From: Mesotaenium endlicherianum
Lineage: Eukaryota
Assembly (NCBI GenBank): GCA_009602735.1
Contig: WELA01001907.1
Location: forward strand, 278,129-342,128
DNA: 64,000 nucleotides
Direction: 5' to 3'
Below the pieces are notes generated by a model. It worked only from the letters and a program-made list of their open reading frames with translations, did no database searches and was not told where the DNA came from. Both the position numbers and the translations under genes were made by a program. This document shows, piece by piece, positions 9,446 through 48,407 of the stretch. The stretch's first letter is position 1; every line of letters starts with the position of its first letter.

Positions 9446-9849
9446 GTAGTTGAGAAGCCCTTTAAAAAAATGTGGAAGCCATCATGGCCTGGTCAACCGG
9501 GGCTACCTTTGCTAAAAGGAAGAACGTCTTAAGTCCTTTAAGAAAACGACGCGCATCAGACCCTGGGCCACCTTGAAGCTTTTCAGGCGGAGAGGGCTTG
9601 TAGGAAGGTCAGTGCCGAGGCCTGCCCAAGATTGGCACGTGGAATGGGCTAAGTGACGTCGCCAGCGGTCCCCCCCGTGTCCGTCCCCCACTAGGCAACC
9701 TACAAGTAAGAATAAAGAGTGGGGTGAGATTCCATCCTGGGAATAAAGCGAATGACTACCTCAGTTGATTGGCTTCAACGAGCGACATACGGTCCTTGGT
9801 ACGATTAGGAACGTCGAACAAAGTGCTTAGAGCTATGGTCATGGTGTAA

Positions 9850-10432
9850 TTGTTATAAGTAAGCTTGAAGACGGCTTATTGTGCGCTTGACATCGGAGTG
9901 CCCAAGTTCCGGGTGCACACTGAGCACCAACTGGTGCGTATAAGAGGCTTGAGGATCACCAAGACGGAGCCGTCTGCCATCACATGACGTACTTGGCCCT
10001 CCATGTAGACAGAATAGCGGCTGCGTTTGAGGACGCAGACGCGCTCCCTCAAAGGTGTCATGCGTCATCTGCTACGTGAGATATACTGAAGTCGAGTCAA
10101 ATTGTCACGTCCTTTGAACCTCGCAGCTCGGTGTCTTGCTCCTCTGCTGCAGCCATGGCAATGCGCCATGCATGTTGTGACAGTGACGACGTCAAGGTTG
10201 ATGAGCCCCGCAAGCTGAACGTTGCCGTCGACGGTGAAGGCTAGAAATGTCACCGCGTGCCTGGCCATCGACTCGTCCTCCTCGTGGCGGCCATTGAGAG
10301 GTCTCTCAACGATGGCTAAGGTTTATGGCTGATGGTGGTGCACGTCAAATTTGTAATCGTGGAGTATGAGTGCCTATCGCATGTACTCGCTAGTGAGGCG
10401 CCCTGAGATCATGAGCCACTTGAGTGGCTGGT
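9850..10432 (-). pseudogene. pol: End of RNase H and integrase Zn-binding region of the same element
   Basis: QPLKWLMISGRLTSEYMR*ALILHDYKFDVHH continues directly from GNH at 11669 once the solo LTR is removed; VMADGSVLVILKP and HPELGHSDVKRTISRL follow. Confidence 0.75.
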
Positions 10433-11668
10433 TGTAATGCATCAATTCATTATTTATTTAATCAATTGCACACACACATATCACTAAATAAATAATATGT
10501 CAATCTACTCACATATGCGAGTCCATCCAAATGAATATGTATCAATAGAATGGGAGTTTACTCACTTTGTCAAAAAGGTCAGCCGAATGATTTTTGTATC
10601 ATATTGTAGTTTGCTGACTTTGTCGAGGTCAGCAAGATGACATTTTGTATCAGAGTATAGGTTGCTGAGATTATTTGTGTAAGTATAGAATATAATATCA
10701 ACAGGCTGATATATAGTAGCTTGTATAAAAGTAGCAAGTATACTTGGACTCAGTACGATGAGGATAGATATATTTGTTTAGATGATTATCTGTAGATTTG
10801 GCACATGTGACCGTAGTATACTGAAAGTCGGGAGGTCGACTAAGATTCGGTAAATTGATGTCGTACCAGTGTGGTCAAATCCTGCGTAGGCGGAGCCGTC
10901 GTTAGTCAACTGAACAGTTAAGGCTTCAATCAACCGACCAATTGATATGGTCGTTACACCTAGATCCGTGCGTCCCAACTTAACGGGTTTCCCATGAGAC
11001 GGCGTACCTTGCGCCGTGGTCAACCAGGTGGTCACTAGGTACATAGCAGGCCGAGATCTCGTGATCCCTCATTCTGGACAGTAGGCTTTACAGTCGGATT
11101 TCAACTTGCAAACCATGTGTGCACTTTTGGGTTCGTTATTATGACCAGCTTTCACGAAAATTGCCATGGCATCTTCATGTGTGCTTCAGATCAAGCAAAC
11201 TAGGGCTTTTTGAAAAGATCTTATCAGCATGCATCCGTTGCTAGTAAGTTTGCTCAATTTGGATAAGTATTGACAGAGTTATGTCTTCTGACATTTCAGG
11301 GTCACTTAGTGGACAGATTCCATGGTTTGCATCTAAGTCCGTGGCATGTGTTTTAGCTACATTAAGGTCATCTGAATGAGAGCGCCTTCGCTATTCAATC
11401 CTTAAATGTTGTGTACGTGCTAATACATGCTTGTATGCGTGGTAGGCAAGAGGCCATGAGTTTCTAAAGGAGAAGCTCTAGTCCTCAAGTTAGCCCCTTT
11501 CTTGTGCCTTGTGTTAGTGTGCAACTATGGCACACTATGTTAAGTGGGTCAAGGGGTATATATGAGTAAACGGAATTAATCATAAGGGCAAAGATCGCTT
11601 TCTAATTTTACACGCTTCCACCTATCTCTGATCTTATATATTGTCTTAAATAAGCAAAACTTATTTCA
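10433..11668 (+). mobile_element. Solo LTR, family C (1236 bp), distantly related to the family A LTR
   Basis: TGTAATG...TTTCA ends; perfect 5-bp TSD CTGGT (10428-10432 and 11669-11673); interrupts RNase H. Confidence 0.92.
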
Positions 11669-12960
11669 CTGGTGGTTGCCGACAAGGCAGAAGGAGGCCC
11701 CGTATAAGTAGTGTTGGAAGTGCACAATAGCCCATACTACTGCAAGGCACTCACCCTCATCAGACTCGTACTTACCCTCCACGTGGTTGTTGCTGCGGCA
11801 AGCGTAGGCCACCACATACTCCACGTCGTCATGCTCCTTGACTAGCATCGCTTCTAGCCCCGCCTGCAACCAGGCCTTGTGCAGGATGAGGGACTTGATG
11901 TGGTTGGGCCGCCCCAGCACCAAGATTCTCAGCAGTAGCTCCTTTAGTTTGTCAAAGACCGCCCGTTGCTCCATGTCCTTAACATAAGCGACCCCCTTCT
12001 GCAGCTGGTCGTTGAGACGCATAGCGAACTTGTTCAAACGTGGCACAAATCGTTGGCAATAGTTGGCCAGCCCCAAAAAAGCTCTCAACTTGGAAATGTG
12101 CATAGAAGGCAAGGTGCCCGTGATGGCTAAAAATATTGGCTAACTCGGGTGCCGACCCGTTGGCGGAGAGGAGATGCCCCAAGTACTCCACCTCCCTTGT
12201 GCCAAACGTGCACTTGCCTGTGTGACACTTGAGCCCAACGTCAGCCAAACACTCTTGCAATATCGGATGTGCTCCACACACTCCTTGAACGTTCCGTTGA
12301 AGACGCACAATGTTAATGTAACACCAAGCAAAGAAAAACCCTGCCAGCTCGTTATGTATGACTTGCTGGAAGATGATGGGCGCGTTCTTGAGGTTGAATG
12401 GCATTGTCTTTCATTGCTATAGCATGTTCGTGTCCCAGAACACCGTCTTGTGCCTTGTCTTCATTTGTAATAGGGTTTTAGTTGAAGCCCTGCCTCAAGT
12501 CCAAAATGGGGAATTATGTGCAATTGCCCATGTTGTCAAACATCTCGTGAGGTATAGGCATGTAATAGCGGCCTTGCTTTGTGACTTCATTTAGCGCCGG
12601 ATATTTGTCGCACACCCTCTTCTCTTACCATTGTCCAAAGAGATCCTTCTTTGTTGGCATTGCTGCAGGGGCGGCGTAGTCCACATTTGACTCCTCAATA
12701 AGTCCCGCCTCTTGCAACTTGCTAGCTCTAACGTCCCCTAGGCCGTTCTTGAAGTTGCTAAGATAGCACCTCTTTTTAGAGACGGCTCGTCTGCCGTGAG
12801 AGGAAGCTTTGGAAGGGTGCCCTTGTAGACCTTAAGCCTCTTCATGCTGCTTGTAAAGTTGACGCTGCGTCTTGCGTTCAAGAGCGCCGTCAGGTGCGCA
12901 GCCTGTGACTCTGTCAGCGTCCCCCCCAGCTTCCACGTAGGGGTGGTTAGAGGCTTCCTG
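11669..12960 (-). pseudogene. pol: RT and RNase H of the methyltransferase-bearing gypsy element
   Basis: ORFs 11979-12404, 12140-12331 and 11666-12112, plus the upstream KKDxxGxW RT N-terminus; many stops and frameshifts. Confidence 0.9.
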
Positions 12961-13319
12961 CCCTGCTAGTGGCGTCTTCTCCTCGGCCACCGCTGCGAGT
13001 TTTCCTCTGCTACCTGCCTGAGGACAGGAAATTTAAAGAAGGAGACCTGTTTTCTTTGAGCCGGTGGAACTCCTTCGTTCTTCTTCCATCCCCTCAACGA
13101 ACCAAAGCTAGAGCGAGAGTCGTAAGAGTCACCGATCCCTGGAGGTGGCGAGGGATTACGAGAAGGCCTTGCACGCTATAGATGAGGATGAAGTCTGGAA
13201 GGTTTTGGGGTGGTAGAATCCTCCTTCGGTCCCGGTATGTCATCCTGGACCTCAAAGTGGCAAGGCTTCTCCGATTGGCGAGCCGTCGCGTATAGAGGGG
13301 TCAGTACCTGGATGCCCCG

Positions 13320-14067
13320 CGGGACCCACGTGAGAATGTTGGCGTCGACGGCCTGTTCCTAAGAGTCGTAGCCGCTTAACCTCGTTGAGGTTGTCCACCT
13401 GTGTGAGGTGAGGAGGGAACCCCATAGCGCGCTTCATCTCCAATACGCGGGGTTGCTCATATATGTATGTAGAGAGGTCAAGAACCATGCCTCGAGTTGT
13501 GGCAATGAATTTTGAACGCCTCACTGTCAATATGGCTCACATAGGTGGGAAGAGCAACACAGATCTCGCCGACCACCTCGCACTGGACGTAGGATGGGTG
13601 CGGCATATGAGCCTCCGATTGCGCCAAATGCTAGTCCTCTAAGATAGCGTTGACGAAGTATTGGTGACAATTACGAGCAACGGCTAGGGCCTCAATGGTG
13701 CCAAGAAGCGCGAGGTTGGTGAAGTTCGCTTGGAGTTGGTGGACGAAGCAATCAATATGTGTCGCTTCAATGACGGCCCTCCAACCAATGTAGCAGCTGC
13801 AGAGGTCAAAGTGGTTGGGGGCCGACGTGGACAGCCACGTTCTCCTCGATCGAGGCTAGCGTATGAGGCAACTAGTGGTCCTCAAACAGGTTGAGAATGC
13901 AGATAAGGTGCCAGATGAGTGCCATGCAAGGATTGCTGGGGGCTCCTCCAACATCGACGATAGAAAAAACCTAGCACTCCCAATCACTGATGACAAGGTC
14001 AACTGGATGGAGGCAAGCGACATGCTCGTTTGGAACGTCTTGAATATCCATAAGCCAGTTTGTCAGT
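13320..14067 (-). pseudogene. Retrotransposon-borne C5 cytosine DNA methyltransferase catalytic domain (about motifs III-X; motif I missing), inactivated
   Basis: In order: MDIQDV; PVDLVISDWEC*VFS (motif IV, 13971-14000); EENV (motif VI, 13836-13844); IEATHIDCFVHQLQANFTNL (motif VII/VIII-like); ALPTYVS..SEAF; EQPRVLEMKRAMGFP (motif IX); LLG/QAVDANIL (motif X). Confidence 0.8.
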
Positions 14068-14787
14068 TGTAATGAATCAGTATACTGGTCGATATAATAT
14101 TTATTTAAATAATATAGTTAAATAAGTTCAGCCTGCTGAACTCTAGTTAACAATCAGTCTGCTGGACTTTATACTTAATATCAGTTTAATGACTTGGCCG
14201 GAAGTAGCAGGCTGAGGCCACCTTAAGTCAGCTTGCTGACACATTCTTTGACAGCCGGCTGACTCCGTACTCGGTAGCAGCGAACTGCCTTGGTATGCAT
14301 CTAAGTACGACATGCTAGATGAATGGCCAGATGACATCCCTATGATGGATGGCGATTCGGGATGATGGGAGATGGCGGTGGATTTGGTTAACCGAGGTCC
14401 TACCAACGTGGTTAACTCCCGGGTAGGCGGTGCCATCGCACTGACCGTTGAACAGTAAACTCATTCCATGTACATACGCTAGACATTGCTCTCGAGTTCG
14501 GCATTCGGAAACGAGGCCAACTCTCTTGTATAGCTTACTGAGAGAGATCTGAATCCAAGGCGAGAAGCCATTGATACGCACTGTCTTCTAACCTTGCTTA
14601 TGTATGAGTTTACTGATTTGCATTATTGATGCTAGTTTACTCGCATTTGACTTACGAGTATTATTCACTGCTAGTGTATTGTCCTTTGCCGTTTAACCAG
14701 TTAACGGAAATTACCATAAAGATTACTTGCTGATATAAAGATCTTTATTAATTGTTAATCGCCTATTTGGTAAGTCGATTCATTTCA
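14068..14787 (+). repeat. 5' LTR of A2
   Basis: TG..CA ends, followed by the PBS; direct repeat of 22160-22880. Confidence 0.97.
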
Positions 14788-14788
14788 G

Positions 14789-14800
14789 TGGTATCGGAGC
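14789..14800 (+). promoter_or_regulatory. Primer binding site, initiator tRNA-Met type (TGGTATCGGAGC)
   Basis: 1 nt after the LTR; one mismatch to the usual plant iMet PBS TGGTATCAGAGC. The same 12-mer occurs at 7443, 39082 and 60324. Confidence 0.9.
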
Positions 14801-14821
14801 AGTTATCACAGTCTTCTTTGT

Positions 14822-16300
14822 ATGGTAAGGACAAGGTCTCAAACTAGCAACTCCCGAGACATGGAGAACCAGGATAACGAGAATGTCGAAAACCAGGCGG
14901 AAAGCCATGTAGCGGGAAACCGTACCTATTCGGAAGCAGTAGCGGATACTGCAGCTAGGGAGGCTGCAGATGAGGCAGCTGCTATTGCCTCAGTCGCAGC
15001 TCAGCAAGCTGAGGAGGAGATAGCCAGACTAGAAGCTGAACAAGTAGCAAAGGCCGCTGAAGATATACAAAGGAGGGAAGGACAGCCAGCTGACGAGCGC
15101 ACTGTTGAAGAACTTATGGCATCAAGGGCCAATGTTCTGAACCCACCTCCTGCCGTACAACTCAATGTACCCCTAGGTCAAATACGTGACCGGCTGAATG
15201 CGGCAGGAATTGCTGCTGCAGGAGCAAGAGGGATTGTTGAGGACACTACTCAGCGAGTAGATGCCAATGCTGCTGCTGCATTTGCTAATCTACCACCCCA
15301 AAATGTAGACTTGGGAGCATTGTTCGTTCAGATGCAGTCGCAAATGGCGACCATGTATCAGTCCCAGCAGGAGGACAAAAGAATCATAATGTCCCTACTC
15401 CGGGACAGAGACCAACTGGGGTCTCACACCACTAGTGGTGGTGGCCGAGGGCCTAGTAAGCCCAAGCCGAAACCTCCCCAGGACTATGATCCTGAGGGAA
15501 ACAGAAAATATTACCTGATCAAGTTTCTCGCGGATGTTGAGCAGTGGCTGGAGAACTACCCAGAACTGCAAGATTACGAGAAGGTCAGGCACACCGGTGC
15601 GCTACTGAAAGGCAGTGCCGCAGACTGGTGGCTTTACTGGAAGGAAGAGCGTAAGGCTCGGCAACTCGGTGACCCTACGTGGGTAGAGTTTGTCGAGAAG
15701 TTGCATGAGAAGTTTGATGTCATCAACCAGCAGGAGAAAGCTATCTATGCGATGATCTCCCTGACACTGAAGCAGACCACTTCAGTTGCTGAGTTTGCTC
15801 AAAAGTTCCAAGAGAACATGATGAAGCAGCCTGATTTGCCAGAACGGTATAGGATAGCATACTTCAGGTATGGCTTGAAATCCGAGGTCTCTGGTCATTT
15901 TGCTGAGAAAAAGTATGAGAAACTGGCTGACTTGATCCAGGATGCTGACGCCTGGGATCAGCAGCAGTTCAATCACAAGCGCCAGAGTAACGCTTTGGTG
16001 TCTAAGATTGTCAAAAAGCCCCACGGTTCCTACAATGCAGTTGAAGGAGACCAGGCTGAGGATAATCAGGGTGATGAATATGAGTATGAGTACAATGCTA
16101 TTCAGTCTAGAGGTAGAGGTGGTCCCTCTCGAGGTGGCTATGGAAGGGGTGGTGGTAGGACTAAGCCGAGACCAGCCTTAGCAAAATCTACTTGCTACCA
16201 TTGTCAGCAGAAAGGCCACTACAGAGAACAGTGTCCGGTCAGGCACCTGCCTAAGGTCGAGAGAAAAGACCAGCCTTTAAAAGACAGCAACAGTCAGTAA
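14822..16300 (+). CDS. gag: Gag, family A (492 aa)
   Basis: MVRTRS start, capsid-like region LKGSAADWW..TWVEF..LKQTTSVAEF, RGG stretch, CX2CX4HX4C knuckle. Confidence 0.95.
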   Translation: MVRTRSQTSNSRDMENQDNENVENQAESHVAGNRTYSEAVADTAAREAADEAAAIASVAAQQAEEEIARLEAEQVAKAAEDIQRREGQPADERTVEELMASRANVLNPPPAVQLNVPLGQIRDRLNAAGIAAAGARGIVEDTTQRVDANAAAAFANLPPQNVDLGALFVQMQSQMATMYQSQQEDKRIIMSLLRDRDQLGSHTTSGGGRGPSKPKPKPPQDYDPEGNRKYYLIKFLADVEQWLENYPELQDYEKVRHTGALLKGSAADWWLYWKEERKARQLGDPTWVEFVEKLHEKFDVINQQEKAIYAMISLTLKQTTSVAEFAQKFQENMMKQPDLPERYRIAYFRYGLKSEVSGHFAEKKYEKLADLIQDADAWDQQQFNHKRQSNALVSKIVKKPHGSYNAVEGDQAEDNQGDEYEYEYNAIQSRGRGGPSRGGYGRGGGRTKPRPALAKSTCYHCQQKGHYREQCPVRHLPKVERKDQPLKDSNSQ

Positions 16301-16317
16301 TCCAGTCTACTGACTGT
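16276..16317 (+). promoter_or_regulatory. -1 ribosomal frameshift signal between gag and pol (family A)
   Basis: Slippery T-TTA-AAA in the gag frame (16276-16282), 7-nt spacer, 10-bp stem ACAGTCAGTA/TACTGACTGT (16290-16317). The -1 frame is open into the protease. Confidence 0.8.
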
Positions 16318-19300
16318 GAGGATGCTAGAGATAGTGAGTCGTCACTAGCTGCCCTCGTAGCAGGTATTATGGGTCCTGCTGAACTGGATTCACTATGCAT
16401 GCCTGACAAACAGATAAAGGAGACCATCAGTAATATAGACGTCCAGAGAGTGCACACTCTGGATGCTCTTGTTCCACCTGATGTCCAACATTTCTTTGCT
16501 ACGTCAGGAGAACAATGCGAAAGTCAGGAAAAGACAGTCCCCCCTATCCTACTGCATTGCATGATTGCAGGTAGGAAGGTGAGGGCATTTGTTGACGGAG
16601 GGGCGTCACATACTTTTATTCACAAGGACTTAGTTAAGCGGCTAAGGCTGCCTACTGTCACCCAAGGGAATAGAAAAATATTCCTTGGAGATGCCTCAAG
16701 TATCCCGGGAGGAGTTATAACCAAGCCTATTGAGGTCCAGTTAGGTTCTGGCATTGCAGTTCTAACTGAAACGCTTACATTTGAGGTACTCAACACTGGC
16801 TTTTATGATCTCGTGCTAGGCAGGTCCTGGCTTAATAAACATCAAGCTGAAGTGTGTTGGAGCAGAGGTGCAGTTAAAGTGAGACGAGCCAGTGATGGGC
16901 AGACTGACTTGGCACCCAGCAGTGCTCTTCCTCTTGTCCTGTGTGGATGGCAAATGAAGGAAAAGAAGAGGCTTCCAGAAGGATGCAAGTTGCTGAATGC
17001 AATGGAGTTCGTCAAAAGCTGGAACCAGAAGGAAGACAGAATGTTCTGTCTGCTGCTAAGAGAGGTACCTCCTCAACCTGAAGAAGTGGTTGAGAAAAAG
17101 GTACACCCCCCGGAACACCCTACTGCTGCAAACATTGTTGCTCAGTACACGGATGTGTTTAATATGCCTCCAGGACTACCCCCTAAGAGATAAGTAGATC
17201 GTAGGATTTATTTATTACCTGGTAGCCAGCCACCCTGGCAACGCACGTATGGCTTGTCTTATTTGGAGAGTGAGGAGTTGAAAACACAGATTGCAGAGCT
17301 GGAGGAAAATGGTTACATTTCTCCCAGTAAATCACTGTACGGCGCACCTATCCTATTTGTTAAGAAAAAGGATGGCAGTATGCGGATGTGTGTGGATTAC
17401 AGAGCCCTGAACAGAATTACAGTAAAGAACAAGTATGCTTTACCCAGAATCGAGGACTTGCTTGATACCCTGTCTGGCGCTAAGGTGTTCAGTAAGATAG
17501 ATCTCAAGAGTGGTTATCATCAAATCAGAATTGCTGAGGGGGATGAACACAAGACTGCTTTCCGCACACGTTATGGACACTATGAGTTCAACGTGATGCC
17601 ATTTGGACTGACTAATGCTCCTGCTACCTTTATGGGTGCTATGAATGACATTTTCAGACCTTATTTGGATAAGTTTGTGCAAGTTTTCCTGGATGATATT
17701 TTAATTTTCTCTAAAGATGAAGCTCAGCACACTGAACACTTAAAGAAAGTGCTGGACACTCTGCGGAAAAATCACTTGTATGCTAAAATGAGCAAGTGTG
17801 ATTTCTTTAAGGAAAGTATTGAATTCTTAGGCCACGTTGTCAGTAAAGAGGGCATCAGTGTGGATCCTAAGAAAGTCCAGACCATAAGGGACTGGCCAGT
17901 ACCACAGTCTGTCTCTGAAGTTAGATCCTTCCTCGGGTTGGCTAACTACTATAGGAGATTTATTGAGAATTATTCCACAAAGGCCAGTAAACTGACTGAC
18001 CTTACTAAGAAAGACATCGGGTATGTGTGGGGGGAAGAGCAGCAGGCTGCCTTCCAGACCCTTAAAGATGCCCTTTGTTCTGCCCCAGTGCTAGCCGTGT
18101 ATGACCCCAGCAAACCGGTGCAGGTGGTTACTGATGCCTCTGATTTTGCCATGGGTGCTATTTTGTTGCAGCCTGCTGACAAAACCACAAAGGATGGTAA
18201 GGTACGGCAGGAGTGGCATCCTGTGTTGTATGAGTCTATGAAATTTAATCCAGCGGAGATTAATTACTCAGTGCATGATAAAGAGCTGCTAGCTATCATT
18301 CATGTACTCAAACAGTGGAGAGCATACTTACATGGTAAAGCTTTTAAGGTGATTACAGATCATCTAGCTCTGACCCACTTTCAGAAGAAGTCCAAGCTGT
18401 CGAGGAGGGAGAACCGCTGGAGCCAGATGCTGGAGCAGTTCCAAGTCCAGATCGACTACAAACCAGGGAAGTTGAATCCTGCTGATGCACTCTCTAGAAG
18501 ACCTGACTTGCAAGAAAGGAACTTTAGTCAGCATGCTGTAGATAAAGTCCTGTGTGCACTCACTTCACTAAAGGTGAAAAAGTCCTTCCTTGAACAACTT
18601 AGGAAAGCCTACCTTTCTGACCCAACATTTGAGCCCAGCCCCACTACTGGTGTGTGTCGTGCTACTGCACTCGGGTATAAGCTCAAGGGAGGGGTCTGGG
18701 TGACTGAAACCACTTCAGGCAGGCTGAAGCTGGTCATTCCTAATAACTTGGAAATAAGGTCTCTCTTACTGAGTCAAGCTCATGACAGTCTCCTGGGTGG
18801 ACATTTGGGGCAGGCCAAAACTGTTGGCAAACTGGCAAAACATTATCATTGGGAGGGGTTACCCCGGGAGGTCTTGAAATATGTCAAGTCCTGTGACCAG
18901 TGTCAGAGAAATAAGTCTCGGCACACACCACCCGGAGGTCTCTTGCAACCGCTACCCATCCCAGCGGGACGCTGGGAAACTATATCCATGGACTGGGTGG
19001 TCTCACTACCAAGAACTGCCAACGGGCATGATTCAATACTGGTAGTCGTGGATAAACTGACAAAAATGGTCATTTTTATCCCCACAACTGTCAAAGTGAC
19101 TGCACTCGAAACAGCGAGACAGTTTTACAACCATGTAGTATGCCAACATGGGCTCCCTTCTAATATCATCTCAGACAGAGACTCAAAATTCACCTCTAAG
19201 TTCTGGAGAGCTTTAATGGGGTTAATGGGAGTCAAACAGCTGCTCAGCACAGCAAACCACCCTCAGACTGATGGGCAGACTGAAAGAACTAACCGAGTTC

Positions 19301-20085
19301 TGCAGGAGGTGCTGAGAGCATATATTAACCAAAAACAAGATAATTGGGATGACCTGTTGCCTCAAATTCAGTTTGCGGTCAACAGTGCGGTGCACGCGTC
19401 AACGGGCAAGACTCCTTTTGAACTCAGCCTGGGTAGAGTCCCTAAGTCTCCTCTAGATGTGCTAGGGGAATCTTTAACTCACCCTGAAGGGATTGACAAC
19501 CCGGTCTCCCTCCAGTTAACTCAGGAGTTTGCTGACACCCTGTCAGAAGTCCAACGAAACTTGCACAAGGCCCAAGAAAACCAACAAAAATACGCTAATC
19601 AACACCGTCGGGAACTGACATTTTCCAAGGGGGATTTAGTCAAACTGCATTCTCAGCACCTGTACCTCCCTGGTGTGGTCAAGAAAAAGCTTGGCCCTGT
19701 CTGGGTCGGTCCATATTCGGTGGTCCGTCGTGTCGGTCAGAATGCTTACAAACTGAACATGTCAGCTGACTACAAGGGTCACCCGGTCTTTAATGTCTCC
19801 TTCCTGGAACCATACATCAAAGGTGATACACTGTTCACAGGTCGGTTACCTGTCCAACCGGGACCGGTCCCCGCTGTCCGGGACGGCGACCCTGAGGAAT
19901 ATGAGGTCGATGAGATTTTAGACGCTCGCTCGGTCCGTCGATCGTCTAAATATGTCATGAAGTACCTCATCCGATGGAAGGGTTACGATGCCTCTGGGGA
20001 CACTTGGGAATTTAAAGACCAGCTGACCAATGCCAAAGGGGCGTTGAAACGGTTCCACCTTCGGGCGGCTGGGGCACCGCCCTAA
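16276..20085 (+). pseudogene. pol: Pol of A2 (protease, RT, RNase H, integrase, chromodomain) with a single in-frame stop at 17191-17193
   Basis: DGGAS protease; FLDD RT; TDASD RNase H; HHCC and D,D35E integrase; [23 protein letters not shown] chromodomain. TAA at 17191 replaces the GAA seen in sister copies. Confidence 0.95.
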
Positions 20086-20409
20086 CTGTCCCTTCAGTAG
20101 ACATGGGAAGGTGACAGGAGGTCCTGTCTCCATATAAGTTGGAGGGGGATGTGACAGTTAGTGACAGTTGTGACAGGCAGCCCACCTTTAAAATTAAGTT
20201 GGAGGGAGTGGTATTCTCTGATCACCATATTACACACTCAACCTGCGCTCACACTCACTTGCTCTCTAACTCAATTTTCCCTTATATTCACTCACACCAG
20301 GTATTCCACACTAGGAACTCTCCCGATCGCGTTCCTCTTCATCAAGGGCACTCAGTAGCGGCAAAATATCATGACTTCACTAACTGCATTGTGTTTATGA
20401 TTGAGCAGG

Positions 20410-22074
20410 ATGACTCAAAAGTCGGAACTCAAGAGGAAGAGAAGGGCGGAAGAGGCACATGCAGAATACTTGCAATTCCGTGGAGACATCGAATCATCTT
20501 CCATCTCCGCTCGGGAATCACAACGACTCCAACAACAGCGGGAGGCACAGAAGAAGAAGGAGGAGGAGGAACAGGCCAGACTGAGGCAGGAAGAAATGGA
20601 CAGAAAAGCTGCAGAGGAGGCTAAGAAAGCAGAGGAGGAGAGGCAAGCTGAGGAGAAGCGGAAGCAGCAGGCTGAAGAAGAAGAACAGAGGAGAATCAGC
20701 AGCTACCGCTACACGGTGCTGGGCAAGGGCTTTGATCTACTGGAGGAGGCCTTCAAGTATGCCCAGAGAAGTCGCAGTGAGTCGCAGAAGGAAATCCTCC
20801 AGAAAGGGGAGACATCCGAAAACTTTGACAAGCATGTAGAGGTCGGCACAGGGCTCCTCCTCTACCACGATTACGCCAGGATGGTAGGATATACCATCGG
20901 AGAGGCCAAGGCAATGGCCCAGGTGAACGAAGCAGGAGCTGTCTCGATTCCTGGTATCTGGGGGGCAGATAGGGTCATCAGGATGATCCCCATGGACGCG
21001 GACAGCTTCAAGGACTCAACACCCCACAACAGGTTCAAGGCCATGTACAATGAGGTGGAGAGGAGGAGCTGGGAATTCTTGGCCAGAGAAACCAGTCAGC
21101 TGGACTTTGCAGGGCACTGGTACCCTTGTACTCTTAAAAAGACAGACGCTGCCTTCTTCCAAAAGCCCACTGATTGGCGGTGGATGACCATCAACATGAG
21201 GGACCAGCAGAATGACAGGGCGACGGATGAGGATTTCCTGACAGACCTAAACGGGAACATAGTATTGCCCCCTCACATTGCGGCTTGGGACCCAAGATTG
21301 GATGGAGTCAGAGACTGCATGAGCCAAGAGATGCAGGGGGACAGAAGCAGGGCCCGAGAGTCATTCTCCAAAGGGAAGCACGCTTATGCCAAATGGGCAA
21401 GTAAGCAGGGGGAAAAGGACCTCTATGCGGTCCGGACTCAGCAGCCCCCACCAGCACCCAAAAGGGGAAGGTCAGTAGGATATTCTTTTTCTCGGGAAGA
21501 GCTGGAGCAGCGGACAGAGGAGACCCCAGAAGTCTCAGAGGAACCCGGGGACGGCGAGGAGGCGGAGTCGGAGGAAGACGAGGAGGAAGGCGAGGAGGAG
21601 GACACTAGCCCCGCCGTGATCCTGACACCTGCCACATCCCCTGTAAGGGAGAAGACGGGGTTGGCCCCGCAGCAACTCGCTGAAGAGGAGGATATCACTT
21701 GGCTGGGAACTGCCAGAGGACAGAGCCCATCTCCAGGCAAGGAGACCCAGTCAGACAGGGCAGACAGGAGGGCTGCTCGGGAGATAGCCAGAGGCCTGCC
21801 AGCATCTCCCTCGCAGAGAGGGCATGTACCCTTGGCTCATGTCATGCAACATCCTTCTGGGATGCCGGTATACGTACCTGTCAGTTTGAGGGCTGCCCAG
21901 GAGAAGGCTGCCTCCCTTCAGTTTCAGACTGTGCAGGAGGAAACAGCCCAGTTACTGCGTTCTCCGCCGGGTCCTTACACGGAACCCCCTTCTCTAACAG
22001 GCTTCAAAAGACCCCAAGACAGGAGGAGGTCTGGCTCCCCTGAGCATAGGGCCTCAGGGACATCTCCCTCCTAA
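20410..22074 (+). CDS. ORF3 type a: accessory protein of unknown function (~554 aa) between pol and the 3' LTR
   Basis: Uninterrupted ORF from ATG 20410: basic N-terminus (KRKRR), E/K/Q/R coiled coil, globular core conserved with 46372-48047, acidic tract, low-complexity tail. No signal peptide or TM segment is visible. Confidence 0.9.
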   Translation: MTQKSELKRKRRAEEAHAEYLQFRGDIESSSISARESQRLQQQREAQKKKEEEEQARLRQEEMDRKAAEEAKKAEEERQAEEKRKQQAEEEEQRRISSYRYTVLGKGFDLLEEAFKYAQRSRSESQKEILQKGETSENFDKHVEVGTGLLLYHDYARMVGYTIGEAKAMAQVNEAGAVSIPGIWGADRVIRMIPMDADSFKDSTPHNRFKAMYNEVERRSWEFLARETSQLDFAGHWYPCTLKKTDAAFFQKPTDWRWMTINMRDQQNDRATDEDFLTDLNGNIVLPPHIAAWDPRLDGVRDCMSQEMQGDRSRARESFSKGKHAYAKWASKQGEKDLYAVRTQQPPPAPKRGRSVGYSFSREELEQRTEETPEVSEEPGDGEEAESEEDEEEGEEEDTSPAVILTPATSPVREKTGLAPQQLAEEEDITWLGTARGQSPSPGKETQSDRADRRAAREIARGLPASPSQRGHVPLAHVMQHPSGMPVYVPVSLRAAQEKAASLQFQTVQEETAQLLRSPPGPYTEPPSLTGFKRPQDRRRSGSPEHRASGTSPS

Positions 22075-22159
22075 GGGCAGCAGGCTGGGGATAAGAGGGA
22101 CAGCACGCTGTTATTAGTGATAGTGTTGTCGAGGCGACAACATGATAAGTTGGAGGGAT

Positions 22160-22880
22160 TGTAATGAATCAGTATACTGGTTGATATAATATTCATTTAA
22201 ATAATATAGTTAAATAAGTTCAGCCTGCTGAACTCTAGTTAACAATCAGTCTGCTGGACTTTATACTTAATATCAGTTTAATGACTTGGCCGGAAGTAGC
22301 AGGCTGAGGTCACCTTAAGTCAGCTTGCTGACACATTCTTTGACAGCCAGCTGACTTCCGTACTCGGTAGCAGCGAACTGCCTCGATATGCATCTAAGTG
22401 TGGTATGCTAGATGAATGGCCAGATGACATCCCTATGATGGATGGCGATTCGGGATGATGGGAGATGGCGGTGGATTTGGTTAACCGAGGTCCTACCAAC
22501 GTGGTTAACTCCCGGGTAGGCGGTGCCATCGCACTGACCGTTGAACAGTAAACTCATTCCATGTACATATGCTAGGCATTGCTCTCGAGTTCGGCATTCG
22601 GAAACGAGGCCAACTCTCTTGTATAGCTTACTGAGAGAGATCTGAATCCAAGGCGAGAAGCCATTGATACGCACTGTCTTCTAACCTTGCTTATGTATGA
22701 GTTTACTGATTTGCATTATTGATGCTAGTTTACTCTCATTTGACTGACGAGTATTATTCACTGCTAGTGCGTTGTCCTTTTGCCGTTAAACAGTTAACGG
22801 AAAGTACCATAAAGATTACTTGCTGATATAAAGATCTTTATTAATTGTTAATCGCCTATTTGGTAAGTCAATTCATTTCA
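22160..22880 (+). repeat. 3' LTR of A2
   Basis: Preceded by hairpin TGTTGTCG-AGG-CGACAACA (22124-22142) and PPT AAGTTGGAGGGAT. Confidence 0.97.
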
Positions 22881-22920
22881 TCAGCGCACTACAAAATGCG
22901 CAAGTGGAAAAGAGATGGGG

Positions 22921-28928
<6,008 letters not shown>

Positions 28929-30612: not shown

Positions 30613-33164
30613 TTAACCTCTCAGCGAAAAGAATTTCTGCAATAATCGCTTATCCTTACTCCTCTTTATGCTATCATTCAAAGGACTGCTACCATCATCA
30701 CCTGCAGAAGGTGGTCCATGACCAGACACAGGATGCAACCGCAATGGCTGTTGAATTTTTTTTGGACAAAAATCATCACCATCGACCTTCAAGCTTTCTA
30801 TGTTCATATCAGCAGGATCAAAAACAAGGACACTTGTTTGTCTTGCTGCTGCACTATCTTCCAAACTAACGTGTTCCCTCGCTGCAACTCTGTCTTCCTC
30901 CTCCTTGTGCTGCTGTAGTAGATCCTCTACCCTTTGTATGGCAGCCACAGAATTGTCTCGATGCATCAGAAAATAGCCCTGAATCATGGCAGGGCTAATG
31001 GTGCCCTCGGGCAACTGAGTGGCAAATTTATTTGCTTCACTTTGTGAGGCTTCTGGATAGAATTTTAGAAATAGGTTGATCAGTTGTAGCCTAGAGCACA
31101 GACCTATGAAAAGGCGCAAGTCCACCCTACCAGGCCTGATGAGGGCAGGATCCAAGCGGTGCAGATGGTTGGTGGTCATCACCAACAATCTTCCTTCTTG
31201 GGCAGAAATGCCGTCAATGGCATTGAGGAGTCCAGAGAATGAGAGCCCGTTGTGCTTCTCATTTCCATCCGTCCTCTTGTTTGTAAATGCAGCGTCAACA
31301 TCTTCGAGGACAAGAATGCTGTGGGTGTCACAGCGATTCATGGCAGTATGAAGCTGCATACGTCACATAAAACATAGTATCAGATGGTTCCAAAGCATCC
31401 TAACATGCCTGCCAGCAGATACGACACACACAGGGAGATCGACACTTCTACAAGCAGACGATAATCAAAAAAATGAAGCAACATGACGTACCATGTCATC
31501 ACTCATTTCTTTGGACGATAGCCCAACCATGGCAACATCAAGGCCAAGTTCTCCAGCTAGAGCTTGGATGAGTGATGTCTTGCCACACCCGGGCGGACCG
31601 TACAGTATATATCCCCTCCTATGAGGTATACCTCTGTCATTATACCTGCAATAATATCAGGACCACTGTACGCACAAATAAAATCCTCCAAATTTTACAC
31701 ACAACCTTTCAGGGAAGGCCACAGGGCATTGGTGATTTAAATCAGTAAAGGCAAGACAGTATCCTGCAAAGCAATCAGAAGCACACAACAGATGCTGCCT
31801 TCCTACTCTGAATGAGAAAGTAGCAGAGAGAGCGCACCAATTGTAGCTGCCGAGAAACTGTCGGGCATCCGCCACAAGGCCCTCCACATCGCAGTCCAAT
31901 ACCACACTGCATATGTACCAACCAGCCTCAAGCCGCATCACGAGTGCCGCAACAGGCATTTTTAAAAGTAAGTACTCGCACAGACAATGCTTGTGGTGCA
32001 GAACACCACGAAACTAATACCTCTATAGGGCAGGAGGTCAAGAGGGGACGGCATGACTGCTAGCATTCACCTATTCAAAGGGCGAGCAAGTCTCGTGGCA
32101 ACAACGTTCCAGTAGTATTCCTGGGCATTCCATCTCTTTATCGTTGTCTTCCTGGTTCCTTCTTCCTTCTTGAAATAAGTCTCCATAGCATCGTGTATCA
32201 CAGCTTCCAGAACATCCCTTGTTGGACCCTCTATAACAAGTTGCTCCTTTCCTCCAGCTGACTGCAAAAGAGTTGCTAAATCACCACCGTCTGCCTCTCC
32301 TTTATTAGCAGCTCCAATCTTTCGCTGAATCTGGAATACGACCTGCATATGGAGAAGTCATTCAGAAACCGACACATGCTTGCGACACACAATCAATGTT
32401 GAGACAAGCCTATGTCCTCTGCATCAGCAGTCAATGGGCTGAATTCAGCTGCCCACGTAACTTCACCTCTCTCTTGCTCTTCACTCTGTTCACACGTCAC
32501 TCCAAAGATACGGGAATAACAATCCCAACCTGTCAGAAAGCAATACCCTCTACTACTAACAGTTGTAACACTTCCATCTGCGCAACTGCGGTAAACTGAC
32601 AAGACCATGCACAGTACCCTCGTCGGATAAAGTTCTTCACTGAAAGGGAATATGCATGTTTGACAACAAGAAATGAAGTAAGCTCCTCTCCACCATCTGA
32701 AATCGAATCAAAGGGGCGCTGCTCCCTTATTTGCTTACCTTCTGGCCCTCGTATATGATGGTTTGAGCCTCGAGAAGCTGAGGTAAAAATAGCAAGCGGG
32801 GACGTGCAGTAGAATCTCGCTGGCTCCCTCCATCCCCGTAGTCGTCAGGTCTATCTGAGGGCAGGCCCCATTTTGTCTGGAGCGTCAGCTGCGATGAATC
32901 TTTTGTAGCGTGTTGACAAAGCCATTCTTGCAGCCACTGAAAGGCTTCTTCGTCCGGCTTCACATAAACTACATATATGCCCCTTCTGCGGCTAACGTAC
33001 TCCCAAAATTGAGCCCAATATTTTCGGAAGAAATTAGCAAGAAACCCTACTAGCATTAAACCAAACCCCCCGGCAAAGTAGTCATTCTGCAAATACTGCC
33101 TCTTCAATGCAGAAACAACTGCTTCTTGACCACCTACTAGCCAATCTGAGGAAGTATCATTCAT
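30613..33164 (-). CDS. BCS1: BCS1-type mitochondrial AAA ATPase; exons 33164(or 33236)-32739, 32342-32071, 31906-31838, 31645-31492, 31353-30613
   Basis: N-terminal [16 protein letters not shown] segment; [34 protein letters not shown] (Walker A); ILVLEDVD (Walker B); [29 protein letters not shown]. All four introns are GT..AG and preserve frame. Confidence 0.92.
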
Positions 33165-33539
33165 GTGACCAGTCAAATGGCTACGGGGTATGCTCCAGTG
33201 AGTAACATAGTTCTGTTTATGACGGATCAACCCCATCGCACAAATTTCTACAAGCACAACCCCGCTAAGTACCCTCTTGTCTGCATGAGCTGTTCACCAA
33301 AAGTACGATGACACTTCTTCATCTCGGAGTCGCTCAATCAATGTTTCTTCATCTCGCCTGGACTTTATTTACTTCAAGGAGACGCAACTGTACTCGTATG
33401 CGAAAATCCTTCACACACGTATTCTAGAGTCGATCGAAATATGATGAGGTATGACCAAGTATGACGAAGTAAAAGAGTAATGAGTCGACAGCATGGAATC
33501 GGTGCGAGGAAGGTTTATGGGAAAACCGTAGCTTTTCCT

Positions 33540-46371: not shown

Positions 46372-48047
46372 CTAAGGGGTTGTTCCAGGGGCTTCAGGAT
46401 CAGGAGACTGGGATTCGGACCTAGATCTGGACAGCCCTCTAGGTCTGTCAGCTGGCCTTCTAAAGAACCCCGTTTGTTCTAAAGTTGGACCTCGAGGAGA
46501 ACAAAGGTAGGTAGCCTGCTCTTCACCCACTTGGATGTTGATCCCCACATAGACAGGCATTCCAGTAGGATGCTGAAATACAATGGCAAGAGGTACATGT
46601 CTAGAGCGAAGGGCAAGGCCGGCATACCTCTGGCCATCCCGCGTGTCCCTCTTCTGAAACCCCTGTCCTCTGGGGATTTCGGGCTGTGTCTGCTGCCAAG
46701 TATAGTCAGATCAGCTTCTTCCCCTGCTTGGGCAGGTGGGCTGGGGGAGCGAGTGCGGGGTCCAGTTGCCTCCATGACCGGGATCACGTTCCATATACCT
46801 GATCTTGGTTCCTTAAGAAGTGCCCCTGCCTGCTCCTGGGTCTCCTGAGTACCAGCTCCTGATGCTTCTGCTCTGCCTTGTTCTTCTTCCTCATCCTCCT
46901 CATCCTCCTCCTCTGAGAGAGTAGGAGTCTCGTCCACTAAGTCGTCTTGCTCCCTGGTAGACATGGAGTAGTCTACTGACCTCCCTTTCTTAGGGCGCGC
47001 TGGAGGTTGCTTGGCCTTCAGCCTGCTGATATCTATCCGGCCTGCATTCTTCGTCCATTTGACGAAGGCATGCTTTCCCTTAGAGAAGTAGTCTCTTCCC
47101 CTCCTCCTGTGCTCTTTGGTCTCTGCATTCATATTGCTCAGGCAGCCATTCAGCCTTGGGTTCGAAGGGGCAATGTGAGGTGGTAGGATGAGGTAGCCGT
47201 CTAGGCCATAGTGGAAATCGTCTGGTTGGGCTCGGTCACAATCCTGCTTTTTGTTTGTGACGGTCATCCACCTCCAGTCTGTTGGCTGCTGGTAGTACTG
47301 GGGTTCATGCTCAGCCTTTCTCGGTTTACATGGGAACCACTGGGGAGAGAACATCTGCTGTCCGGCCTCCCTGGCCAAGTACTCCCAGCTCCTTCTCTCA
47401 ACTTCATTGTAAGCTGGCAATAGTGTGAGGTAGAATACCGTATCCTTGAAGCTATCTGGCCGCATGCTCACCATCCCGATAGGTCTTTGATCTCCCACTA
47501 TTCCCGATATTGGGACTGGCTTGTCCTCTGAATCATCGGCAAGGTAACGGGCCTGCTCTGCTGTGTAGCCCACCATCTTGGCATAATCCTCGTAGAGGAC
47601 CATACCAGTGTGTGTCTGAATGTACCTATCCAGTGCTGCAGTTCCTTCCCTCTGTGGCAGTGTTGTCTGTTCCAGCTTGTTGATCTCTTGGGCTGCCAGC
47701 AATGCTTCTTTTAGGTAGTCAAAGTTTTGGCCACCCACCACAGTATACCTGTAAGTGGCCAAGCTCTTCTGCCTGTCCGCTTCAGCCTTTTTCCTTCTCT
47801 CCTCCTTTGCCGCTGCCGCTTCTTCTTGTTGTTTCTTCTGTCTCTCCTCCTCAGCTTTCCTGAGGTTTTTCGCTTCCTGATCCTTCTTCCTCTGTGCTTC
47901 TTCTGCCGCCTCTTGTTGTTTGCGGACCCTTTCTTGTTCTCTCCTGGCGAGGGACGTCGCCGCGAGCTCCTTCTGGTATTGCTCCATTGTCCTCCTGGCT
48001 TCTTCTGCCTTGCGCTTTCTGTCCTTCTTTTGTGTGGTGGGAGCCAT
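46372..48047 (-). CDS. ORF3 type b, diverged homologue of 20410-22074; one frameshift near 46610
   Basis: Shared motifs YRYTV, LYxDYAxMVGYT, DSFKD, YNEVERRSWExLARE, W(Y/F)PC, PTDWRWMT, LPPHIA..PRLxG, FSKGKHA, PKxGRSV. The C-terminus (MPVYV...) continues in ORF 46372-46560. Confidence 0.88.
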
Positions 48048-48407
48048 TTTGCACATGTAGCCAGGGCACAAGTTAGTAGGATATCGACCTTTGTCCTAGA
48101 AGTTGCAGGAAGGGAGTAAGTTCGTATTAGTATGGTATATTCGTTCCTGTTTACCTTACAGGGTGATTGCTAGGAGTTGACGTAGTTGCGGTGTGCTAGA
48201 CATAAACGTACAAATATGTTTTCCTTTTTCCTCCAGCTAAAGATGCTTTATGTGGGCAAGGCTGTCCCCTCTGTCACTATGCTGACTCTTAGAAAGCACA
48301 TAACTGTCTCTTTCTCGCTCTCGCACACTAACTGTCATATTTTTTCCCCTCGAACTTAAATGGAGACAGGACCTCCTGTCACCTTCCCGTGTCAAATGAA
48401 ATGATTG

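Follow-up and report, generated by a model that had tools for sequence, protein, structure and literature searches.

The minus strand at 13.3–14.07 kb of the window, that is, of the whole 64,000-nucleotide stretch of Mesotaenium endlicherianum DNA that we analyzed, contains a broken DNMT3-like C5 methyltransferase (MTase) that is part of a dead Gypsy element. The element is almost certainly a truncated copy from a family in which a DNMT3-like MTase is located inside Gag-Pol, ahead of the reverse transcriptase (RT); the window copy makes no enzyme. It is a further member of the Gypsy-DNMT3 kind already published (de Mendoza et al., 2018; PMC5890265), because its relatives have the order Gag-protease-DNMT-RT-RNase H-integrase, the start of which is common to proteins from Klebsormidium nitens and Closterium. 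With the kind published in 2018, the contribution here is breadth: a far wider spread than one alga. Taken as a whole, the reading that we consider probable is a dead Gypsy-DNMT3 copy from a family whose enzyme is likely to methylate the element's own new cDNA.

A sequence-only reading of the window had described C5-MTase motifs in canonical order on the minus strand, and all of the motifs that it quoted are located there: motif IV, Trp-Glu-Cys (WEC) followed by a stop (13982-13971); motif VI, ENV (13844-13836); HQLQANFTNL (13741-13712); motif IX, EMKRAMGFP (13440-13414); and the tail of motif X, QAVDAN (13355-13338). The motifs are spread over three frames, with three frame changes and three stops when the pieces are counted. 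Piece 1 (13830..14066) contains motifs III, IV, and VI and two of the stops (profile iE 5.2e-8). Piece 2 (13511..13816) contains motifs VII-VIII, the target-recognition region, and one stop (iE 2.3e-9 and 3.7e-12 with two profiles); both conserved Arg residues of its motif VIII are read as Gln. Piece 3 (about 13357..13494) contains motif IX and the start of motif X (iE 7e-4 and 3.8e-7 with two profiles), and piece 4 (13299..13355), which aligns with the relatives, contains the tail of motif X. The most upstream surviving part of the MTase is a stretch of 13 codons between motifs II and III (22885..22923, minus strand). The sequence-only reading had included 22881-22920 in the profile search that it proposed; 22885-22923 extends the domain without a gap and in register with the relatives. 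This stretch resembles K. nitens GAQ93235.1 and the family protein P0135, and 2 of the 127,918 13-residue stretches in the window, itself included, score as high. Neither profile located motif I anywhere else in the window.

Decayed copies of this kind are missed by standard domain scans. A word-based search with MTase piece 1 gave no match among 12 candidates; a word-based search with the window RNase H retrieved 10 generic Gypsy proteins, none of which (0/10) has a precomputed DNA_methylase domain; and the viral contigs searched gave no match. The sequence-only reading had pointed to the DNA_methylase profile (PF00145) as a check, which fails on the unjoined frames: single frames, with X at stops, have no match in Pfam, PHROGs, or the PDB. 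Against a profile of 120 intact relatives, the copy with an X placed at every break reaches 113 bits over 249 columns. In this alignment the dead copy retains 21 of the 34 covered conserved columns, including the catalytic Cys and the motif VI Glu; both motif VIII Arg residues are gone. A profile made from metagenome relatives, which were picked solely by their RNase H motif and independently of the MTase, identifies three collinear pieces in the whole 64 kb (iE 5e-8, 2e-9, and 7e-4); every other match has an iE of 0.9 or more. Over 13250-14067 the scores sum to 75 and 80 bits, whereas the highest values among 300 shuffles are 7.7 and 6.4.

The order of domains on the minus strand of the window element is MTase, RT, RNase H, integrase; the MTase is on the same strand as, and upstream of, the other domains, as the sequence-only reading had stated, and strand, order, and spacing agree with those in the relatives. 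The pre-RT segment and the RT (12156..12960) are frameshifted and contain stops; they share 39-47% identity with a DNMT-bearing relative, compared with 29-33% for the chromoviruses in the window. The proposed distance of ~350 bp between MTase and RT applies if measured to the conserved pre-RT segment near 12940; the homology to RT itself starts at ~12783, ~550 bp below motif X. The main part of RNase H is located at 11669..12139 (Pfam RT_RNaseH_2, E 1.5e-17), and its end, together with a decayed integrase, at 9446..10432 (E 1.3e-4 for the RNase H end; the integrase piece has E 0.74, with motifs recognized by eye). Gypsy-type RT, RNase H, and DDE integrase are identified by the Pfam RNase H match, tblastn, and the RT tree (vide infra), the integrase being much decayed. 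At ~9446 the integrase gives way to a chromovirus fragment that truncates it; the PHD finger and the 3′ repeats are absent from the window copy.

Two later insertions disrupt the element. One (10433..11668, plus strand) is a solo-LTR-like, high-copy insert that begins with TG, ends with CA, is flanked by an exact 5-bp duplication, and splits RNase H. The contig depth over this insert reaches about 2,000x the single-copy level, and the insert is likely from a very abundant family; this depth, at 10.4-11.7 kb, does not reflect integrase copy number, as the region is the solo-LTR-like insert. The other insertion (14068..22880, plus strand) is a younger, full-length chromovirus of 8.8 kb (gag, protease, RT, RNase H, integrase, and chromodomain) located inside the MTase. 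Its LTRs (14068-14787 and 22160-22880) differ by a K2P of 0.027 over 719 sites, and its target-site duplication (14063-14067 / 22881-22885) is alike at 4 of 5 bases. The dead Gypsy-DNMT3 copy was already in place before this chromovirus inserted. Beyond 22923 is the gag of another, 5′-truncated chromovirus, so motif I, the protease, the gag, and the 5′ repeat of the element have been lost. Downstream of its chromodomain and ahead of its 3′ LTR, the chromovirus that splits the MTase has an additional sense ORF of ~550 codons (20401-22074, plus strand). A diverged counterpart, whose core seems conserved on visual inspection, is located in another copy (46479-48095, minus strand); there is no match in Pfam and no usable match in the atlas searched.

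The DNMT3 kinship of the MTase is established through its relatives. With the family profile, the best match in the PDB is DNMT3A (2e-25), ahead of a plant-type DNA methyltransferase of 357 residues (7e-14) and HhaI (2e-10). P0135, the closest relative, has the WEC form and is 36% identical to the window MTase; its predicted structure, of high confidence over the domain, best matches DNMT3A/B (E 3e-14; TM 0.71 over the target). The domain is intronless and non-permuted, with canonical motif order; the window copy is linked to DNMT3 by its match to the family profile and by the match of the family to DNMT3A. The catalytic domain of human DNMT3A/3B (PDB 6w89, 2qrv) is the family's best match in both sequence and fold; however, the identity is about 20%, the human motif IV is Gly-Ser-Pro-Cys, and the human proteins are encoded by multi-exon host genes and have regulatory domains.

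In the RT-RNase H tree (35 selected rows), all of the DNMT-bearing elements, including that in the window, form one clade (100/99) that is apart from other Gypsy RTs. Within it, the elements with DNMT between RNase H and integrase form a subclade (100/97), and the window element groups with the metagenome loci (96/93). The RT places the window element separately from the chromodomain-bearing elements; its RT-RNase H is 25-27% identical to those of the window chromoviruses, compared with about 41% for the DNMT-bearing relatives. The MTase tree (38 selected rows, with host DNMT3 genes left out) separates the two domain orders (94/97), that is, they split alike on the RT and MTase trees; the window MTase is drawn near GAQ93235.1 on a long branch with support of 41/87. 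The relatives' profile, the domain order, and the RT tree bear out the earlier assignment to the DNMT-carrying Gypsy elements of de Mendoza et al. (2018).

An RNase H-motif pattern retrieved 87 metagenome loci, which are from a few data sets and include many near-copies. In 30 of the 33 loci with at least 2,600 nt of upstream DNA, an MTase domain is located upstream; one metagenome example matches Pfam DNA_methylase (5e-8) and DNMT3A (1.4e-6). Motif IV and the RNase H motif are 2,224 nt apart in the window; in the metagenome loci, this spacing is mostly 2,146-2,177 nt. Three loci (L043, L054, and L056) have the family RNase H motif and enough upstream DNA with no MTase match; these may be deleted copies. 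DIRS-like split direct repeats, in the arrangement A-coding-B-A-B, are found in 3 of 10 relative loci (L014, L027, and L069); in L014, the split repeats are at 414-702 and 9856-10505, and the C-terminus is PHD-like.

A search of 1.84 billion representatives with the MTase of a relative as the query identified 1,613 clusters at E-values up to 0.001 and 216 at up to 1e-30, that is, a family of hundreds of divergent members, with named members in Closterium, Klebsormidium, and Scenedesmus. The family counts that follow rest on the best 150 representatives, ranked by likeness to the WEC query. Names were retrieved for 30 of these: six are from Closterium, one from K. nitens, and one from Scenedesmus, and 22 are without an organism name. 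Pfam DNA_methylase matches are obtained for P0134 (5e-8) and P0155 (6e-12). In P0155 and P0295, a zinc knuckle, protease, DNMT, RT, RNase H, and integrase are encoded by one ORF, and DNMT and RT also share an ORF in P0290 and P0196; in the window the frame is broken, but strand, order, and spacing match. The order in the window is also found in Closterium CAI7855100.1 (Gag-protease-DNMT-RT) and in the partial K. nitens GAQ93235.1 (Gag-protease-DNMT). Of the 70 representatives with an RT, 67 have an alternative order, RT-RNase H-DNMT-integrase (e.g., P0137, P0141, P0174, and P0315); these proteins, among them one from Scenedesmus, often have a PHD finger.

The window copy has Glu-Cys in motif IV instead of the canonical Pro-Cys of C5-MTases. 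Among 120 near-complete domains, 68 have Glu before the Cys, 43 have Pro, and 9 have another residue, that is, the canonical Pro is replaced in 77 of 120; the share of Glu may be inflated by the ranking of the 150 representatives by likeness to a WEC query. Glu also precedes the Cys in 26 of 31 aligned metagenome fragments. The sequence-only reading had suggested that WEC may mark a distinct clade; this suggestion fails, as Glu-Cys is the commonest state and is interspersed among the others. On a tree built without those columns, the Glu/Pro states require 17 changes, compared with a shuffled mean of 37.6 and minimum of 30; therefore, the states cluster locally without marking one clade. The catalytic Cys, the motif VI Glu, and the first motif VIII Arg are each retained in 120 of 120 relatives, and 38 conserved columns are kept alike in the Glu-Cys and Pro-Cys forms (0.962 vs 0.957).

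For other copies in the Mesotaenium genome, we examined contigs from a sequencing run that may be the source of the window DNA. There are 23 contig records on 12700-14067. One represents this very locus, and the remaining 22 resemble the window at 90-95% or at less than 90%; their depth does not give a copy number. Those listed (8 of the 23) fall on either motif IX-X (13379-13442) or the pre-RT segment (12886-12943), with loose ends unlike the window, and in none of these eight is an MTase joined to an RT in a second copy. From three RNA runs, 0 reads were placed, a count that does not bear on expression. The contigs do show that diverged relatives with an MTase motif are present in the genome. 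Together with the profile matches and the RT tree, these records uphold the earlier proposal that this genome hosts or hosted such a family.

The closest published system is KnitGypsy-Dnmt3, which PMC5890265 describes in K. nitens only; it also has an intronless, non-permuted DNMT3-like domain within a Gypsy pol. The DIRS-like A-coding-B-A-B repeats of KnitGypsy-Dnmt3 are shared by relatives of the window element, with both ends missing from the window copy itself. Unlike KnitGypsy-Dnmt3, the window copy is in another alga, likely a zygnematophyte-like one, and is dead. GAQ93235.1, likely a copy of KnitGypsy-Dnmt3, shares the Gag-protease-DNMT order and is 28% identical to the window MTase over 246 columns; however, its motif IV is Phe-Pro-Cys, in contrast to the Trp-Glu-Cys in the window. 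SymbioDIRS-Dnmt3 and SymbioLINE-Dnmt of Symbiodinium also carry a C5 methyltransferase on a retroelement, that of SymbioDIRS-Dnmt3 being DNMT3-like and in Pol, but their backbones are DIRS (tyrosine recombinase) and LINE, respectively, and the paper describes independent captures (PMC5890265). The EpiLTRs of Cymbomonas and Euglena are Ty3/Gypsy-type LTR elements with a cytosine MTase; they differ in that the DNMT is sister to DNMT4 and is accompanied by a Dam-like adenine MTase and a chromodomain (bioRxiv 10.64898/2026.05.21.726589). The window element does not belong with the EpiLTRs: its family is DNMT3-like, and a scan of 29 relative proteins gave no match to Dam or chromodomain. The same 2026 preprint names ‘streptophytes (Gypsy-DNMT3)’ in passing and sets the EpiLTRs apart, and an opinion paper places such elements in green algae and charophytes, with absence from tracheophytes (PMC6338049). 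In the available portions of the published accounts of Gypsy-DNMT3, we found no description of the Glu-Cys state, the second domain order, or zygnematophyte copies, although Fig. 4c and Supplementary Fig. 13a of PMC5890265 may show the motif or the order; the available portions of PMC10952607 and bioRxiv 10.1101/2022.06.16.496473 add nothing on Gypsy-DNMT3. The family now includes many intact natural enzymes with which to ask whether a Gypsy-borne DNMT3 is active and on what; one published test is negative.

The domains of Gypsy Pol are packaged and processed in the particle, which is the site of cDNA synthesis. In active elements, the protease would free the DNMT within the particle alongside RT and integrase; the freed DNMT would then methylate cytosines in the cDNA before integration, probably at CG as DNMT3 enzymes do, and the new copy would arrive already marked like host DNA. 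De Mendoza et al. proposed such self-methylation of cDNA for DNMT-bearing retroelements (PMC5890265). In their yeast assays, two SymbioDIRS-Dnmt3 domains performed de novo CG methylation and KnitGypsy-Dnmt3 gave no methylation, a result that the authors call inconclusive and that was shared by human DNMT3B (PMC5890265). From the fusion and Gypsy biology we judge it somewhat probable, as those authors propose, that the family DNMT methylates the element's own cDNA. Counting against this are the replacement of the motif IV Pro in most relatives and the lack of extra CpG loss in the window element, for which the observed/expected CpG ratio is 0.76-0.81, compared with 0.48-0.73 for two window chromoviruses.

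The identity of the remnant and the role of the enzyme can each be read in other ways. The absence of library matches for single frames would be expected if the motifs had arisen by chance or were an MTase pseudogene, of host or bacterial origin, that happens to sit next to a Gypsy pol; however, scores of 75-80 bits where shuffles do not exceed 8, an order and spacing that are the same as those of the relatives, the absence of introns, and the position of the window RT within the DNMT-bearing clade leave this reading with a negligible probability, and the profile matches, the shuffle test, and the RT tree rule it out. An active enzyme in the same element could instead act after integration or in trans, damping the element's own copies or marking nearby host DNA (self-restraint or local chromatin). 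A PHD finger, which is a chromatin reader, ends 9 of 20 relative proteins, and slowing of retrotransposition is listed as a possibility by de Mendoza et al. (PMC5890265); the fusion into Pol would, however, put the domain with the cDNA in the particle, and we consider action after integration or in trans unlikely. Somewhat less probable still is that the Glu-Cys domain has lost its methyltransferase function and serves as a DNA- or SAM-binding module that aids reverse transcription or targeting. The loss of the motif IV Pro from most members would fit such a module, and the inactivity of the K. nitens domain in yeast may fit it as well (PMC5890265), but the catalytic Cys, Glu, and Arg positions are invariant, the Glu-Cys forms retain the conserved columns as well as the Pro-Cys forms do (vide supra), and a WEC form is modelled as a full DNMT3 fold. 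Within the preferred reading of cDNA methylation, a broader history can be put forward with less than even confidence: one ancient Gypsy lineage across chlorophytes and streptophytes may have captured DNMT3 once and moved it within pol (before RT or between RNase H and integrase), and an undescribed Glu-Cys catalytic loop, which most of its members would use, may still support methylation of cDNA in the particle, with single-stranded or RNA:DNA intermediates as possible substrates.

The window is dense with transposons; it contains several chromodomain-bearing Gypsy copies and one intron-bearing host gene (30616-33293, minus strand) that encodes a BCS1 of the yeast/animal type (BCS1_N plus AAA). 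The best named matches of a BCS1 exon are Closterium proteins (53-55% identity), which are ranked under two unnamed matches; by this one gene, the host is likely a streptophyte alga and may be a zygnematophyte. Uncorrected for composition, the observed/expected CHG ratio of the dead element (9446-14067) is 0.64-0.74, compared with 1.0-1.4 in two younger chromoviruses and a BCS1 exon; the low CHG hints that the element decayed while subject to non-CG methylation by the host.
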